A stretch of DNA of 64,000 bases from an uncultured Patescibacteria group bacterium (GCA_905478415.1 CAJQIG010000004.1:75523-139522); one strand, 5' to 3'. Counted from the stretch's first letter, positions 33,847 through 42,249 are shown. The notes: generated by a model from the letters alone, not told the origin. Numbers and translations: made by a program.

Positions 33847-34044
33847 TTAAGATTCGTACTCTTTTGTTGCACCGTTCTCTAGTGCTCTTTCAGCATTAGC
33901 TTTAGACATCATTGCACAAACAGTTGTTCCACACTTCTCGTGCTTCCCTTTGGCCATGAAACCACCTTTTTTAGTTTTGTGAATCCCTGGTGCTGACAAT
34001 TCAACGCCTTTTTCCTTACATTTAACGCAGTATCCTGTGACCAT
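33847..34044 (-). CDS. DUF5679-family small zinc-ribbon protein
   Basis: CVKCKEK...KCGTTVCAM Cys pattern typical of DUF5679. Confidence 0.55.
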   Translation of the reverse strand: MVTGYCVKCKEKGVELSAPGIHKTKKGGFMAKGKHEKCGTTVCAMMSKANAERALENGATKEYES

Positions 34045-34223
34045 GTCGATCTCCCTTTAAATTATATCTTGTTGCATTATAACGCCATTTTATGTTGATT
34101 CATACCTTAAAGGTAAAAGCAGGCAAACCTAGAGGTTGTTTTTCCTAGCAAACTTAGAATTTCGTGTCAGAAAAAAATAAATAAAGTTGAGGCTCGCTGT
34201 CGTGGATGAAGTTAGGAACTGTT

Positions 34224-34427
34224 TTATTTAGCTTCTTCTATCTGTTTAGGTGGACATTTACTATCTGCATAAGAACAAAAAACACAACAATCACCTTTTT
34301 TAGGAGTCATTGTCTTTTCACATTTCTCACACTTGAAAAAGTGCTGACAAGCATCTGTCGGCATTTCAGAAATTTGATCATGACCACAAAAGGGGCAAGT
34401 TATTGTAGCAGTTGTTTTTATTTCCAT
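34224..34427 (-). CDS. Cys-rich small zinc-ribbon protein (10 Cys in 67 aa)
   Basis: CPFCGH...CQHFFKCEKCEK...GDCCVFCSY...CPP. Confidence 0.4.
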   Translation of the reverse strand: MEIKTTATITCPFCGHDQISEMPTDACQHFFKCEKCEKTMTPKKGDCCVFCSYADSKCPPKQIEEAK

Positions 34428-34570
34428 GCTTCCATCATAGCAGGTTCGAGCCTCCTATTCGGGTTATAAAAAATACTCGAGGAAAAACCTCGTGCTCCCC
34501 GCTCTTGAAGAAGTTAGGAACGGATTACTTTTAACAAACTACATGCCACCACAATCTCTGTAAGCCCTAT

Positions 34571-35002
34571 CTAGTTCACTTTTCTAACCTTCACCAAGTC
34601 ATCAACACCCTCAACAGAAATCTGCCTACCATTAACACCATCAATTACCATCGCATTTGGTAAATGTGCGTATCGGTACTTGTATTTGCCCTCAGTCTGC
34701 TCCCAAACTTGACCATTCTGAAACTGAAACTTCATTCCATGATTAAAACCTTCAAATTTTGAGGTAATTCTGCCCTCAGTCACTATTTGAATTTGTTGCA
34801 CCTCTACCGTGTCATTCATTCCTTCAATACTGATAACATAACTACCAGTAGAATTAGGTTTAATGACCACAGCAGGTCGATAAGCATAATGGTAGTTATA
34901 CTTATACACACTCTGCTGCCAAACTTGTCCATTATCTAGTTTAAAGACGGATTCACCATCAAACCCATGGAACTCACCTTCTATGTGACTATGTATTGTC
35001 AT
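34571..35002 (-). CDS. Hypothetical protein with two tandem ~67-aa beta-rich repeats (possible di-Ubl/beta-grasp)
   Basis: Internal duplication: GEFHGFDGESVFKLDNGQVWQQSVYKYNYHYAYRP... vs SKFEGFNHGMKFQFQNGQVWEQTEGKYKYRYAHLP... Last gene of the cassette operon. Confidence 0.5.
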   Translation of the reverse strand: MTIHSHIEGEFHGFDGESVFKLDNGQVWQQSVYKYNYHYAYRPAVVIKPNSTGSYVISIEGMNDTVEVQQIQIVTEGRITSKFEGFNHGMKFQFQNGQVWEQTEGKYKYRYAHLPNAMVIDGVNGRQISVEGVDDLVKVRKVN

Positions 35003-35351
35003 AATTTTCCTCCAATTCTCTGTACCATACTATTCTACCGCTATTTAACCAAAAGTGGCTTTTACATCCCTTTAGTCTCCATATTGAAGGAGATAGCGAA
35101 GGTCGTTTCTTTTTTACTGTCATCTCCCAACGAGGATGCACATCTTCTTGACAATTTAAATAGATTTTTGCTCCACAACCACAAGGGCACTTGAGAATGA
35201 AATACCATTGATAGCCATTTTCGCCGACCACATATAAGACCTTGTCCTTTACTGACTTTGGATTAAAACTCTGCACTGAAACAATTTTAAAGTATTCATC
35301 AAACCCAATTTTATTTCTAAGCCAACGGACAAAAGTATTTACTATTTTCAT
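34989..35351 (-). CDS. Zinc-binding Cys/His cluster protein (possible treble-clef/RING-like), 120 aa
   Basis: LKCPCGCGAKIYLNCQEDVHPRW...KGCKSHFW; 4-nt overlap with the JAB-E1 gene. Confidence 0.45.
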   Translation of the reverse strand: MKIVNTFVRWLRNKIGFDEYFKIVSVQSFNPKSVKDKVLYVVGENGYQWYFILKCPCGCGAKIYLNCQEDVHPRWEMTVKKKRPSLSPSIWRLKGCKSHFWLNSGRIVWYRELEENYDNT

Positions 35352-36745
35352 AGTGATGGGTATCCCAGTACTACTTTCTGGTCACCTAGACCAATCTTTT
35401 TCACTAAACTAGTATCTATTCCTCTTGATTTGATTGGCTCAATATAACTATCCAAAAGACTCATCCTCAAGCTCACAATTTCAGTATCTAAACCAAATCT
35501 AAGACCATGTAGTCTATTAAGTAACTCTAGTATTCCAAAGCTAGCAGCGAATGAGTTAGGAGTAATAACTGCAGGAACTTCTTCTGGTAGTCCAGGTAAG
35601 TAACCCTCATCAAGCTGCTTTCTGTATTCTTCTCTGTTGGAGGCTTTCATAGATGCAGCAGCTAATTGTGATGAATTAAAAATCCCCCGTTTATGAAGTG
35701 ACTCACCTGGTAAAATATAGTCTGCTCTTGCTGATACATGCTCAACCCCTCCATTACCATCAATCAAAATTTTCACTCCTACATCTATTATTGGAATTAG
35801 ATAGTATGTCCCCATGCGGTTGATAACCTGCCTTGCATATACATCATCAACACAGCTAAATAAAACATCGCACCCTTTCAAAAAATCAACTGCAGCTCGG
35901 CTTGCGATACTTTCTTGCATTACATTAACAGTTGTTCCTAAACCAAGTTCATTTGCATATCTAACAAATACATCTACCTTTGACGACTTATTTTTGACAT
36001 CTCCTGTTGTCGCCCCAACAATTCTATTAAGATTTTTTGCTTCAACTATGTCTGGGTCAATCAAGGTAAGAGACTGAACTCCATAATGAAGCAGCTGTTG
36101 GATAACTAAACTTCCTGTACCAGAACAACCAATTACTCCAACACGAAGCTTTTTTAGTTTTGATAAGGTTTCTGACCCAAAAACCTGATGTGACCTTTTT
36201 TCATGCTCAGCTAATTCACCGATATTTTTTATTTTGGGCGATATTCTGTCCCCAACCATAAGAACGTCATCCACATCTTCAAATTTTTCTTGATTGAAAA
36301 CTCTTGCTTTTATTACACCATCTGGCAAAAGTATTGCACTCATGAATGAATTCTCTCTTCCTAGCCAAGAATGGACAGTATTTGCTAGCGACTTATCAGA
36401 GATATCATCTGCATTCGAGAATGTCTCAATGCCCGAGGGGTGACTATGAATCTTAAGTATTCCATAGGAACCATCAATGTATTCACTCAATTTTTCTGCC
36501 AGAAGAGCCGTCTTCCAAGTTATATGAGATTTAGAACGACTCTTAATTTCTTCTAAATTAAAAGGGACTATCTCGTGAACCAAAAAAATAATTTCACCTT
36601 TACTTTCTGCAACTCCACATACAACAATAGCCACCGATTCCTTTGAGTCCCCAGGGTAAAGATAACCTTTTATTTCTGTTAGCTGCGGTTCTGTAATTCT
36701 CAGCCTAATCGATTTTTTCATGCTAATGTCTCTTTTTCCAACCAA
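35348..36745 (-). CDS. JAB/JAMM deubiquitinase-like domain fused to E1-like (ThiF/MoeB) adenylyltransferase domain
   Basis: N-terminal JAMM motif E...HSHPSGIETFSNADD (HxHx7Sx2D). C-terminal Rossmann VGVIGCSGTGS...LIDPDIVEAKNLNR typical of E1/ThiF. Confidence 0.8.
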   Translation of the reverse strand: MVGKRDISMKKSIRLRITEPQLTEIKGYLYPGDSKESVAIVVCGVAESKGEIIFLVHEIVPFNLEEIKSRSKSHITWKTALLAEKLSEYIDGSYGILKIHSHPSGIETFSNADDISDKSLANTVHSWLGRENSFMSAILLPDGVIKARVFNQEKFEDVDDVLMVGDRISPKIKNIGELAEHEKRSHQVFGSETLSKLKKLRVGVIGCSGTGSLVIQQLLHYGVQSLTLIDPDIVEAKNLNRIVGATTGDVKNKSSKVDVFVRYANELGLGTTVNVMQESIASRAAVDFLKGCDVLFSCVDDVYARQVINRMGTYYLIPIIDVGVKILIDGNGGVEHVSARADYILPGESLHKRGIFNSSQLAAASMKASNREEYRKQLDEGYLPGLPEEVPAVITPNSFAASFGILELLNRLHGLRFGLDTEIVSLRMSLLDSYIEPIKSRGIDTSLVKKIGLGDQKVVLGYPSL

Positions 36746-37440
36746 GTAGTAACCTGGAGAATGTGTGTGCCAACCCCATCTACATCAGACCTCCATTCAT
36801 CAGCGCTTTTTCTATGTCTTGACCACCTTTGGAAAGATTGACCCTTAATTTGTTGTTCTGATATTTTTTCTACAGTTTTTTTTGAATTTAGAGTTAAATG
36901 TGGGTGAAAGTATGCCATATCAATCTGCACATCTGGATATGCTGGAGGAATCATCAATGCTAAAGTTGCTCTCTTTTGGTCATATCCATGCGGAACTTCA
37001 AAGTCATAGAGAAGGAGCCAGTTACTGGCTCCTTCCTTTATTGCTTCCCATTTTTTGAAAGATTTAGTGAGATGGCTTTTGTCATCTTCAGGTAAATCAA
37101 AATCATTCCCATCACCCTCTGTTTGGTCAAGTGGCATTGTTATGAATCGTTCTACACCAGGTCGTGTTAAGTTGATTATTTCGTCATAATCAATGCGTTG
37201 AACTTGTCCTCCATGTAGTTTTTGACTAATCATAAACTGCTCCACGGGTGTTTTACCTGCAAGCTCGAGCAACGAACGACCTGATATGGTTTCTGTATTA
37301 ACCACGAAATGCTGGCGGTCGATGAGAATTTTATATCTACGTCCTTTCGGAATAGGCTTTTTAGACCTTGCATGAGCTTGGAGGTCAATTACCTCAGCTT
37401 TACTAGCTTCTACTGTTTTGTTGGGGGTGTCATTAGACAT
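36718..37440 (-). CDS. Ubiquitin-like (multiubiquitin-type beta-grasp) domain fused to an E2/UEV-like domain that has no cysteine
   Basis: N-terminal YKILIDRQHFVVNTETISGRSLLELAGK...IDYDEIINL beta-grasp pattern. C-terminal LALMIPPAYPDVQIDMAYFHPHL resembles the UBC fold up to the HPN-like motif, but there is no Cys anywhere in the protein. Confidence 0.55.
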   Translation of the reverse strand: MSNDTPNKTVEASKAEVIDLQAHARSKKPIPKGRRYKILIDRQHFVVNTETISGRSLLELAGKTPVEQFMISQKLHGGQVQRIDYDEIINLTRPGVERFITMPLDQTEGDGNDFDLPEDDKSHLTKSFKKWEAIKEGASNWLLLYDFEVPHGYDQKRATLALMIPPAYPDVQIDMAYFHPHLTLNSKKTVEKISEQQIKGQSFQRWSRHRKSADEWRSDVDGVGTHILQVTTWLEKETLA

Positions 37441-37533
37441 ATCCCTCCTTTATCGCCTGTCCAAAGCAATACTTTATATAAACAGGGTTTTCAATAGAAA
37501 CTGTATGCTATACAATGAAAGTGTAACGTCACT

Positions 37534-37607
37534 GCAACAGTTGTTTCATTCCAACCCTGTGTGAGTTGGACTAAAAACTAGTTATACACCAACGAAACAG
37601 CTGTTGC
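37534..37607. promoter_or_regulatory. Pair of near-palindromic 14-bp sites GCAACAGTTGTTTC / GAAACAGCTGTTGC in the divergent promoter region; candidate XRE-repressor operators
   Basis: Two inverted copies (13/14 identical) at 37534-37547 and 37594-37607, between the Ubl operon and the XRE gene. Confidence 0.4.
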
Positions 37608-37639
37608 AAGTGTTAAACACTTAGGATATACTAACTACT

Positions 37640-38002
37640 ATGAGCAAACTTACAATTCAACGTATTGGCATCGAGATAAAAAACAAAAGAGGCACCAAAG
37701 GATTAAGAGAAACAGCTAAAATAATCGGAGTAAGTGCTGCAACACTTTCAAGAATTGAATCTGGAAAACAACCCGATTTAGATACATTTGTCAAAATCTG
37801 TAAGTGGCTCGAAATCAACCCCTCAGAAATACTTTCTTTTGAAGAAACTCAGCCCTTTTCCTCAGACGACGTTAACAACAATAGTTTCACATCAGCACAT
37901 TTAAGAGCAAATAGAGAACTCTCTCCTGAAACCGCTAGTCATTTAACACAGGCTATACTTTCCATGCGTGAATTCCTCTCTATGAACGATGATGTTTCAT
38001 AA
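37640..38002 (+). CDS. XRE-family helix-turn-helix transcriptional regulator (CapH/ImmR-like)
   Basis: LRETAKIIGVSAATLSRIESGKQ HTH_3 motif. Confidence 0.75.
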   Translation: MSKLTIQRIGIEIKNKRGTKGLRETAKIIGVSAATLSRIESGKQPDLDTFVKICKWLEINPSEILSFEETQPFSSDDVNNNSFTSAHLRANRELSPETASHLTQAILSMREFLSMNDDVS

Positions 38003-38010
38003 GGGGTGTC

Positions 38011-38577
38011 ATGTCAAACTTCAAACTTAACCCAGGATTCAAGAGATGGTGCGAGAAAGCTGCAACTGCTTTTCGAAGTGAATTTGGTCTCCTGGCAACT
38101 GCTGCTCTTCCATCAGAAAAAATGGCTGAATATCTGAATGTTCAGGTTGTTGAATTTTCTGAGTTGAGAATCCCTGCTGAATCTAAGACATATTTGCTGA
38201 CACAAGGTTCCAAAGAATGGTCTGCAGCAACTGTATCTAGCTCAAAAAAAACAGTTATTTTAATCAATGAAAGTCATACTGAGGAAAGAAAAAACAATAG
38301 CCTTATGCATGAGCTCTCTCATATTATTTTGAAGCACGAGCCATCAAAGTTTACCAACCTACTCGAAGCTGGTATTTCCTTTCGCACATACGATGAAAAG
38401 CTTGAAAAAGAAGCTGATTGGCTCGCCGCAACACTACTTCTTCCCAAAGATGTTTTAGAAACTATTGGAGCAATAGTTTCTAAGGCTGATATAGAGAGAA
38501 AACACACCGTAAGTCCAGAGCTTCTTAGATTTAGGTTGAATCTAACTGGAATTGGTAAGAAAATTAAAAATCAATAA
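38011..38577 (+). CDS. ImmA/IrrE-family zinc metallopeptidase (CapP-like)
   Basis: SLMHELSHIILKHE HExxH motif; located immediately downstream of the XRE gene. Confidence 0.7.
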   Translation: MSNFKLNPGFKRWCEKAATAFRSEFGLLATAALPSEKMAEYLNVQVVEFSELRIPAESKTYLLTQGSKEWSAATVSSSKKTVILINESHTEERKNNSLMHELSHIILKHEPSKFTNLLEAGISFRTYDEKLEKEADWLAATLLLPKDVLETIGAIVSKADIERKHTVSPELLRFRLNLTGIGKKIKNQ

Positions 38578-40608: not shown

Positions 40609-42216
40609 ATGAAACGTGTTTTTATGTACTGCAGAAAATCAAGTGAAGATAAGGGTAAACAGATACTCTCAATAGACGACCAAAAACGTGAATTATGGCG
40701 AATTGCTAAAAACCTAAACTTAAAAGTAATTGATGAGCCAATCGAAGAAGTAAAGTCAGCTAAAGCACCAGGAAGACCAAAGTTTAGTGAGTTGGTAAAA
40801 AAAATCTATAATAATGAAGCTGATGGTATTTTATGTTGGAAACTAGACCGACTTGCTAGAAATCCCATTGATGGTGGCAACATCATTTGGATTGTAAAAG
40901 ACCAAGGAAAGGTTATTTACACACCTTCTCAAACCTTCTCCCATCAGTCAGAAAATACTATCATGATGTACATCGAGTTTGGTATGGCACAAAAATACAT
41001 TGATGATTTAGGAAAAAGCGCAAAAAGAGGCATGAAAACAAAAGCTGAGATGGGGTGGTATCCTGCTCATGCTCCACTTGGTTATGAAAATACACCTGGT
41101 GAAAAGAAAGGTTCAAGAAAAATAATAAGTGATAATAATTTCAAGCTAGTTCAACGGTGTTTTTACGAAATTCTCAAAGGCAAACAAGCTTCACATGTTT
41201 GGAGAAAAGCTAGAGAAAAATGGGGGTTAAAGTCAAAAAAAGGGAATCCCGTTGCTCACTCTACTTTTTACAACATATTAACTCACCCCTTTTACTATGG
41301 TGAATATGAGTGGCCTCGTGGTAGTGGAAATTGGTACCAGGGAAAGCATGAGCCAATGATTACCAAAGAGCAATTTGATGTTGTGCAAAAAATGTTAGGA
41401 AAAAATGGAAAGCCAATCTCTAGGAGTCATACTTTTGATTTAACTGGACTCTTTAGATGTTCAATCTGTAGCTGCGCAATTACTGCCACAAAAAAAACTA
41501 AACACTATAAAACTACAGGAAGAATTGCAGAATACACCTATTATCACTGTTCCAAGAAAAATCAAAATATCAAGTGTTCACAACCCCCTGTCAGTGAAAA
41601 AGACTTCGAGAACGAAATTATGAAGCAACTAATGATGCTCAGACCTCCAGAGGAGTTTGTGACTTGGGCGAAAAAATGGATTAAAACTGTACATGACTAC
41701 GAATCTCAAACAGAAGAAGAAATACTTGCATCTCAAAATAAAGAGCTTGAATCAGTCGAAAATCAGCTGAGCAATTTACTTGATTTGCGTATCAGAAGTG
41801 ATATTGACGACTCAACATATAGGAGCAAAAAAACACTCCTTGAACAGGAAAAATTGACTGTTAAAAGAAAGATTAACGAATCAGGAAACAACCTTTCATC
41901 TCTTAGAATTAGAGTAGAGAACGCTATCGACATAGCCTATGGCTCACATCTAAGGTTTAAGACTGGAAAACGTGAGACAAAACAAGAGATTCTAGTGAGC
42001 CTTGGCTCGAACCTCATCTTAAATCATAAAAAAATACGGATAGACCTGTTAAAACACTTTGAAGTCTTTAGAGATAATGAAAAATGGGAAGATACATATG
42101 AAGATTGGCTCGAACCTCAAAAATACATGGAACTATTCGAAAAAAGACCTGATTTGCGACCTGCAAATCCAGTATGGCTCCCCCGGGAGGATTCGAACCT
42201 CCAACCTACCGGTTAA
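40609..42216 (+). CDS. Large serine recombinase (resolvase/invertase N-domain + recombinase domain + zinc ribbon). The 3' end of the ORF reads into tRNA-Asn, so the true stop may be earlier.
   Basis: YCRKSSEDKGKQ...SIDDQ (catalytic Ser); recombinase-domain and CxxC...C zinc-ribbon region; 535 aa. Confidence 0.8.
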   Translation: MKRVFMYCRKSSEDKGKQILSIDDQKRELWRIAKNLNLKVIDEPIEEVKSAKAPGRPKFSELVKKIYNNEADGILCWKLDRLARNPIDGGNIIWIVKDQGKVIYTPSQTFSHQSENTIMMYIEFGMAQKYIDDLGKSAKRGMKTKAEMGWYPAHAPLGYENTPGEKKGSRKIISDNNFKLVQRCFYEILKGKQASHVWRKAREKWGLKSKKGNPVAHSTFYNILTHPFYYGEYEWPRGSGNWYQGKHEPMITKEQFDVVQKMLGKNGKPISRSHTFDLTGLFRCSICSCAITATKKTKHYKTTGRIAEYTYYHCSKKNQNIKCSQPPVSEKDFENEIMKQLMMLRPPEEFVTWAKKWIKTVHDYESQTEEEILASQNKELESVENQLSNLLDLRIRSDIDDSTYRSKKTLLEQEKLTVKRKINESGNNLSSLRIRVENAIDIAYGSHLRFKTGKRETKQEILVSLGSNLILNHKKIRIDLLKHFEVFRDNEKWEDTYEDWLEPQKYMELFEKRPDLRPANPVWLPREDSNLQPTG

Positions 42217-42249
42217 CAGCCGGGCGCTCTGCCATTGAGCTACAGGGGA
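42175..42249 (-). tRNA. tRNA-Asn (anticodon GTT), CCA encoded
   Basis: Hand-folded cloverleaf: acceptor UCCCCUG/CGGGGGA, D-stem GCUC/GAGC, anticodon loop CUGUUAA, T-arm GGAGGUUCGAAUCCUCC, discriminator G plus CCA. Close to E. coli tRNA-Asn. Confidence 0.85.

Follow-up and report, generated by a model that had tools for sequence, protein, structure and literature searches.

A probable Type I Bub operon encoding a JAMM peptidase-E1 fusion on a serine-recombinase island of a Patescibacteria-like genome

The stretch of DNA analysed here, referred to as the window, comprises 64,000 nucleotides from an uncultured Patescibacteria group bacterium (GCA_905478415.1, CAJQIG010000004.1:75523-139522). Its minus strand holds an open reading frame (ORF), 35348..36745, that encodes a JAB/JAMM peptidase N-terminal to an E1-type adenylation domain in one chain. 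This arrangement had been proposed in an initial annotation of the window, and the reading frame, homology and fold all confirm it. The translation contains ...LKIHSHPSGIETFSNADD... and, further downstream, ...VIGCSGTGS...LIDPDIVEAKNLNRIVG... The upstream gene encodes a ubiquitin-like protein (Ubl) fused to an E2, and the downstream genes encode a DUF6527 protease and a 143-residue protein with two repeats. These genes lie beside a divergently transcribed CapH/CapP-like pair, on an island that carries a serine recombinase and ends at a tRNA-Asn gene (Table 1). We identify the ORF as the BubCD of a Type I Bub operon, bubAB-bubCD-bubE, which lies beside a divergent CapH/CapP pair on an island with a serine recombinase, situated at tRNA-Asn in a genome of Patescibacteria-like character, and we put the probability of this reading at roughly 0.93. 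Type I Bub operons are bacterial ubiquitination-like operons, formerly designated "6E.1/DUF6527".

Table 1. Features of the bub locus and its surroundings, in window coordinates.
Feature	Position	Strand	Basis or remark
bubCD, JAB/JAMM peptidase-E1 fusion, 457 residues	35348..36721	-	phmmer; AlphaFold2; ATGA overlap; exact product on contigs
JAMM peptidase domain, ~residues 1-165	36227..36721	-	E28, H92, H94, S102, D105 invariant in homologues
Substituted JAB residues 20, 59, 126	about 36662-36664, 36545-36547, 36344-36346	-	119-sequence alignment
E1 adenylation domain, ~residues 166-457	35348..36226	-	Pfam ThiF; R233, Y374 invariant
R233 codon	about 36023-36025	-	E1 domain
Y374 codon	about 35600-35602	-	E1 crossover loop
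bubA part of bubAB, ~35-residue lysine-rich tail and single beta-grasp Ubl, residues 1-109, end ...LDQTEG109	37114..37440	-	Multi_ubiq E=1.2e-13
bubB part of bubAB, cysteine-free E2 with D174, S207, H209	36718..37113	-	Prok-E2_E E=8.8e-34
bubE, DUF6527 serine protease	34989..35351	-	PF20137 E=4.7e-23
Fourth gene of the transcription unit, 143-residue two-repeat all-beta protein	34571..35002	-	14-nucleotide overlap with bubE
CapH-like XRE-family helix-turn-helix (HTH) repressor	37640..38002	+	HTH_3 E=5.4e-9; paired with downstream M78 peptidase
CapP-like M78 (IrrE/ImmA) metallopeptidase	38011..38577	+	Peptidase_M78 E=1.1e-16; PADLOC capP E=1.4e-13
Divergent promoter region, two palindromic AACAG(T/C)TGTT sites within an 18-nucleotide inverted repeat	37533..37608 (37533-37550, 37591-37608)		200-base-pair capH-bubAB gap
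Terminator-like hairpin and T-run	34478..34492	-	downstream of the 143-residue gene; consensus scan
Large serine recombinase, ORF ~40 nucleotides into the tRNA gene	40609..42216	+	Resolvase, Recombinase, Zn_ribbon_recom domains
tRNA-Asn(GTT)	42175..42249	-	ARAGORN

As first annotated, the ORF opened with a TTG codon at 36745 and encoded 465 residues. The true start is most likely the ATG at 36721, which removes eight residues, because this ATG overlaps the bubAB stop codon as ATGA and the exact 457-residue product is reported by gene callers on 18 metagenome contigs from several samples. By exact look-up, no record of the 465-residue version was found. Residue numbering of BubCD hereafter follows the 457-residue protein. 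Translational coupling extends from bubAB to bubCD through the ATGA junction, and from bubCD to bubE through a 4-nucleotide overlap with the bubCD stop. A scan of the genome contigs with BubCD peptides detected only a single distant ThiF locus.

The identification stands on homology, fold, the complete set of catalytic residues and operon architecture, all of which are present in the window. A phmmer search against the PDB aligned residues 13-465 of the long ORF with residues 7-455 of the 458 of Citrobacter BubCD, that is, over its full length (E=3.2e-62; entries 9EA4, 9EA5, 9EA8, 9EAE and 9EAV). Other PDB matches, including UBA6, ThiF, MoeB, UBA5, MccB and Cap2, were limited to the adenylation core, at E=1e-8 or weaker. 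The AlphaFold2 model of BubCD, built with 58 homologues, has a mean predicted local distance difference test (pLDDT) score of 92.7. The initial annotation had pointed to modelling of the JAMM fold as a critical check, and the model matches BubCD crystal structures over both domains: these are the top eight Foldseek hits, with E down to 2e-43 and template modelling (TM) scores of 0.81-0.86 (0.84-0.86 against 9EAV and 9EA4). The matches ranked below them (UBA5, MccB, ThiF) cover the E1 half only, with a query-normalised TM of ~0.45. A family search returned 455 matches at E<=1e-10, nearly all of 455-475 residues. The closest homologous locus, L096, encodes a BubCD that is 45% identical, and its gene order matches that of the window operon. 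The initial annotation had regarded such fusions as predicted only bioinformatically and not characterised. This view is out of date, as the BubCD family has five PDB entries and published biochemistry, its structure and chemistry having been worked out in 2024-2025 (PMC11601596). The window BubCD is a new instance of this already characterised system.

The N-terminal domain displays the JAMM signature ...KIHSHPSGIETFSNADD..., which precedes a nucleotide loop of the ThiF type and the motif DPDIVEAKNLNR. The HxHx7Sx2D motif read in the initial annotation is indeed present, at about 36407-36448. Within the domain, E28 is assigned as the catalytic residue and H92, H94 and D105 as zinc ligands, and S102 is also present. 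These five residues are invariant in 119/119 aligned homologues, and all of them occur in the window protein. Moreover, the phmmer alignment maps the JAMM and E1 residues of the window protein onto E28, H91, H93, D104, R227 and Y370 of Citrobacter BubCD.

The C-terminal half matches Pfam ThiF at residues 187-324 (E=8.9e-30). Two details of the E1 motifs had been misread: the nucleotide loop, G198-C-S-G-T-G203, is GxSGxG and not GxGxxG, and a lysine rather than a serine precedes NLNR in the second motif (DPDIVEAKNLNR). The adenylation residues D222, N230, N232, R233, D292 and D313 are present in the window protein and invariant among the 119 homologues. The same conservation applies to Y374 of the crossover loop (119/119), and the crossover segment, residues 345-385, contains no cysteine at all. 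The thioester chemistry implied by the initial annotation does not fit this family, which works via tyrosine and serine oxyesters.

The upstream gene, 36718-37440 on the minus strand, is one 240-residue ORF with a Multi_ubiq and a Prok-E2_E domain, and its N-terminal domain had rightly been suspected to be a Ubl. The BubA part aligns with residues 155-229 of Citrobacter BubA and with further multi-ubiquitin structures. A full HMMER scan gave 847 relatives of BubAB, and the best 150 were aligned. G109 is conserved in 133 of the 134 homologues that cover its column; in addition, BubA homologues encoded on their own have their C-terminus at this very column (...LPLDQTEG), and free-standing E2s start 2-3 residues later. 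For the BubB part, the match is Citrobacter BubB (E=5e-17); the alignment spans the active-site motif QRWSRHR and places S207, H209 and D174 on Citrobacter S333, H335 and D299. These three residues are conserved in 134-136 of the 151 aligned rows, the remainder being mostly gaps. The whole BubAB protein is devoid of cysteine.

BubE, the product of the downstream gene, combines four cysteines (C55, C57, C59 and C96) with a Ser/His dyad (S89 and H99), and its N-terminus is extended by a stretch with many hydrophobic residues. The pattern CPCGC...SPS..GCKSHF is kept across three aligned BubE sequences, and its spacing equals that of Citrobacter C57/59/61/99, S92 and H102 (PMC11601596). The corresponding Pfam family, PF20137, is now called "BubE". 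A variant layout was found at L097 (4210-6799) and at the P0135 locus, where a JAB-E1 fusion and BubE occur together, yet BubA (ending ...DQTEG) and BubB are encoded by separate genes. These split operons adjoin an ECF-sigma-like gene in place of CapH/CapP. The published account of the Bub systems describes the BubA-BubB fusion as common to every Type I operon (PMC11601596). In the split operons, the JAB domain cannot be required to separate the Ubl from the E2.

By analogy with the Citrobacter orthologue, and given the conservation of the residues involved, the following mechanism can be proposed for the window operon. The JAMM domain (E28, H92, H94, D105 and Zn2+) would cut the BubAB pre-protein after G109, so that the E2 is separated from a single-domain Ubl whose C-terminal glycine is free. 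The homodimeric C-terminal E1 would then bind the Ubl and adenylate G109 with ATP by means of R233, D222 and D292. Y374 of the crossover loop would accept the Ubl as an oxyester, no catalytic cysteine being involved. From there, the Ubl may move to S207 of BubB, assisted by H209 and D174, and then to lysines of target proteins. BubE, a putative zinc-binding Ser/His protease, would strip the conjugates. CapH is expected to repress the operon until it is cleaved by CapP after DNA damage or infection. A role of Bub in anti-phage or stress defence is probable but hypothetical, also in the case of the model operons.

Several observations weigh against this reading. The identity to the characterised Citrobacter BubCD is moderate (~31% in the structural alignment), and even the closest database homologue reaches only 45%. 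The domain search suggested in the initial annotation succeeded for ThiF, but the Prok-JAB match (E=2.5e-4) scored 21.4 bits, below the gathering score of 25, and hence the domain model alone is insufficient for the JAB call. That call is secured because the match to Citrobacter BubCD is full-length, the E/HxH/S/D residues are invariant in 119 homologues and the fold matches. At nine positions with 90% conservation or more among the 119 aligned sequences, BubCD also deviates; the changes include H20Y, C59I and H126F of the JAB domain. Furthermore, the tyrosine oxyester intermediate was inferred from mutagenesis and models and was not trapped, and no Bub operon tested conferred protection from phage (PMC11601596). 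As for the altered JAB positions, 95% or more of the 119 homologues have H, C and H, respectively, at residues 20, 59 and 126, where Y, I and F stand here, with C35 kept; these substitutions might reflect the loss, in this lineage, of a structural metal site or cluster.

Among the closest described systems is the Type I Bub operon of Citrobacter sp. RHBSTW-00271 (Ye, Gong, Chambers & Corbett, PMC11601596). Its BubCD has the same two-domain JAMM-E1 layout (456 residues, against 457 in the window) and has every catalytic residue in common with the window protein, the crossover tyrosine among them; neither protein has a catalytic cysteine. In the Citrobacter operon, too, BubAB lies upstream, with a glycine at its junction and a Ser/His/Asp E2 triad, and a DUF6527 BubE lies downstream. 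The two operons differ in that Citrobacter BubA consists of three domains of the beta-grasp kind and assembles into filaments, whereas the window BubA has one, the number that occurs in 40% of Bub operons (PMC11601603). In addition to the JAB substitutions and the distance in sequence, the window operon carries an extra co-transcribed gene after bubE, that of the 143-residue protein, and resides in a Patescibacteria-like host. Type II Bub (BubA, a BubBD E2-E1 fusion and BubE) employs E1, E2 and DUF6527 proteins of the same families, with Tyr/Ser oxyester chemistry as well. However, its E2 is fused to the E1, a JAB domain is usually missing, and the E2 has Ser, Lys and His in contrast to the Ser, His and Asp of the Type I operon in the window.

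One alternative concerns the question of whether the JAB domain acts on the precursor or on finished conjugates. The initial annotation had considered both activities, and the former agrees with what was demonstrated for the Citrobacter orthologue, which suggests that the window enzyme would also process its precursor. The opposite case, that JAB is mainly a deconjugase (deubiquitinase, DUB) recycling Ubl-target conjugates beside the E1, draws on the JAB peptidases of the Bil systems and of the cyclic oligonucleotide-based antiphage signalling system (CBASS), which act as deconjugases (PMC11601596). It also draws on the P0135 and P0137 loci, where separate bubA and bubB genes, with a BubA already ending in ...DQTEG, coexist with a retained JAB-E1 fusion, so that JAB must do something there besides cutting a fusion. 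In the window, BubA and BubB are fused and G109 cleavage is therefore needed before adenylation. Moreover, Citrobacter BubCD cuts its BubAB after the corresponding glycine, conjugates accumulate despite an intact JAB domain, and it is BubE that removes them (PMC11601596). We consider a mainly deconjugating JAB unlikely; the domain may deconjugate in addition to processing the precursor.

The other alternatives concern the nature of the system as a whole. The E1 half resembles the homodimeric E1-like enzymes ThiF/MoeB and UBA5, which have the same adenylation fold (target-normalised TM about 0.7-0.8), ThiF being the closest non-Bub fold, and the best NCBIfam matches of BubCD are ThiF and MoeB models. 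One could thus imagine an adenylyltransferase joined to a JAB domain in the manner of CysO/Mec+ or SAMP, serving sulfur-carrier or cofactor synthesis (thiamine, molybdopterin or cysteine) instead of conjugation. We give this almost no credence. The scores lie far under the cut-offs (TIGR02356, 73.8 against 275 bits; MoeB models likewise), and ThiF/MoeB and UBA5 lack a JAB domain, have other partners and employ thiocarboxylate or Cys-thioester chemistry. No ThiS/MoaD, rhodanese or biosynthetic genes were found near bubCD, which has instead a Multi_ubiq Ubl, an E2 and BubE as neighbours and shares its mobile island with CapH/CapP. A misassigned thioester system of the Bil or CBASS type is just as improbable. 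PADLOC E1-E2 (Cap2) models do match the adenylation domain (E about 1e-11), but only over its Rossmann core. Bil (BilABCD, bacterial ISG15-like), which has a defence-associated role, also unites Ubl, E2, JAB peptidase and E1 in one operon, but as separate genes, with a eukaryote-like IAD-AAD-CYS E1, cysteine thioesters and no DUF6527; in the window, the E1 is a single adenylation domain fused to JAB, neither the crossover loop nor the E2 has a cysteine, and DUF6527 is present. Type II CBASS, with Cap2 (E2-E1) and Cap3 (JAB), shares the E1 adenylation core, the JAB peptidase and the CapH/CapP regulators; it differs in that Cap2 conjugates a CD-NTase and not a Ubl, has an E2 rather than a JAB domain as fusion partner and uses cysteine chemistry. 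The window contains neither a CD-NTase nor an E2-E1 fusion, and the absence of cysteine from the whole of BubAB speaks against both systems. Finally, the nine altered BubCD positions and the lack of a known phenotype for any Bub operon could be taken as signs that the operon is a remnant, decaying and without function, carried by a mobile element. This is very unlikely because every catalytic residue is intact, in three proteins; besides, the frames are full length and translationally coupled, and the identical protein recurs on 18 contigs of several samples.

The locus extends Type I Bub to a genome of the Patescibacteria, or candidate phyla radiation (CPR), type. Patescibacteria/CPR genomes are small and usually poor in defence systems. 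Earlier work had already described the JAB-E1 fusion together with its structure, its role in precursor processing and the cysteine-free oxyester chemistry; the impact of this finding on the biology of Ubl conjugation is small, and the window locus alone does not advance the questions of which targets Bub modifies and what it protects against. The minimal one-domain Ubl might be more tractable than the BubA of Citrobacter with its three domains and its filaments.

The sole mildly new item of the locus is the 143-residue protein encoded after bubE. It consists of two repeats, 37% identical to each other, with the motif G.F.G...F.L.NGQVWQQ..YxYxYxY.P, and it matched no family in Pfam, NCBIfam or PADLOC. 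Its AlphaFold2 model (pLDDT 96.8) is all-beta with zero helices, and Foldseek found no fold match in the PDB. The repeats had been put forward as a candidate Ubl partner of the E1. This suggestion has to be abandoned, as the protein is not a beta-grasp and has no C-terminal glycine. We found 150 homologues, hypothetical proteins of ~142-146 residues. Their contexts are varied and of a mobile or defence character, including TIR, PemK/SLFN, NUDIX/HEPN, AbiE, and methyltransferase with helicase. In six loci (L012, L016, L017, L018, L022 and L029), DUF2188 lies directly upstream of the family member, and it is with DUF2188 that the closest homologues pair. Among 80 metagenome loci of the family, many of them too short to judge, no E1 was found nearby except in L015, a copy of the window operon.

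On the other hand, the family recurs beside Ubl operons or the CapH/CapP pair. A one-repeat homologue comes after bubE in L096, the closest Bub operon. An unrelated Ubl/JAB/E1 operon in L013 and L014, divergent from a CapH/CapP-like pair, has as its last gene a two-repeat homologue of 145 residues, attached by a 4-nucleotide overlap. This operon, at 4049-6438 in L013 and the same in L014, encodes a 94-residue Ubl with a weak Multi_ubiq match, a 110-residue protein of unknown function, a 167-residue JAB-like protein with HVHTHGH and a 279-residue ThiF E1; it has no DUF6527 and is as yet unassigned to a named family. In L011, a family copy lies just downstream of the remnant C-terminus of an E1 of the L013/L014 type. 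In L016 (5459-8027), a CapP/CapH-like pair is divergent from genes for a small HNH-like protein, DUF2188, a 145-residue family member and a 198-residue unknown protein, with no Ubl genes in the operon. These independent occurrences favour a real accessory, for instance a target, sensor or effector, of some CapH/CapP-controlled Ubl-conjugation operons. The absence of an E1 near the other family loci and the pairing of the closest homologues with DUF2188 weaken this idea, and we regard it as rather doubtful. The 143-residue protein is not a general Bub component, and we tentatively consider it a passenger gene whose link to CapH/CapP-controlled modules is weak and unexplained.

The CapH/CapP-like pair is transcribed divergently from the Bub operon. 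An association with CapH and CapP has been reported for 31% of 544 Bub operons (PMC11601596). The AACAG(T/C)TGTT palindromes in the intergenic region are candidate CapH operators. In the promoter and terminator scans, the number of sites was not above that of shuffled sequence, and the operator and terminator calls are weak for this reason. The 76-residue HTH gene and the 150-residue gene that flank capP have counterparts of 89 and 153 residues, in the same order, in L096.

The tRNA-Asn gene is the likely integration site of the island, and the model Bub operons, including that of Citrobacter, likewise belong to mobile elements situated at tRNA genes (PMC11601596). The guanine-plus-cytosine content dips slightly, to 0.35-0.38 in the island against ~0.40 in the flanks. 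A search between 20000 and 43000 detected no att-type direct repeat of the tRNA-Asn 3' end, which leaves the left boundary of the island undefined. A 90%-identical variant contig (L095) bears the same island, so that no empty site was recovered. Apart from the genes of Table 1, the island holds two further HTH genes, a 150-residue membrane protein and a 191-residue winged-HTH protein. The TypA encoded at 1094-2923 has its best named homologues in Candidatus Woesebacteria (80% identity), the candidate division WWE3 and the Patescibacteria group, which points to a host of the CPR/Patescibacteria type. The Patescibacteria-like genome of the window also encodes MutS/MutL. Just downstream of the operon, 33847-34427 on the minus strand encodes two cysteine-rich products, namely a 67-residue ORF with CxxC pairs and a weak zinc-ribbon match, which is called on some contigs only, and a 65-residue DUF5679 protein. 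Past these two ORFs lie genes for an ArsR regulator, a thioredoxin-like protein and an ArsP permease.

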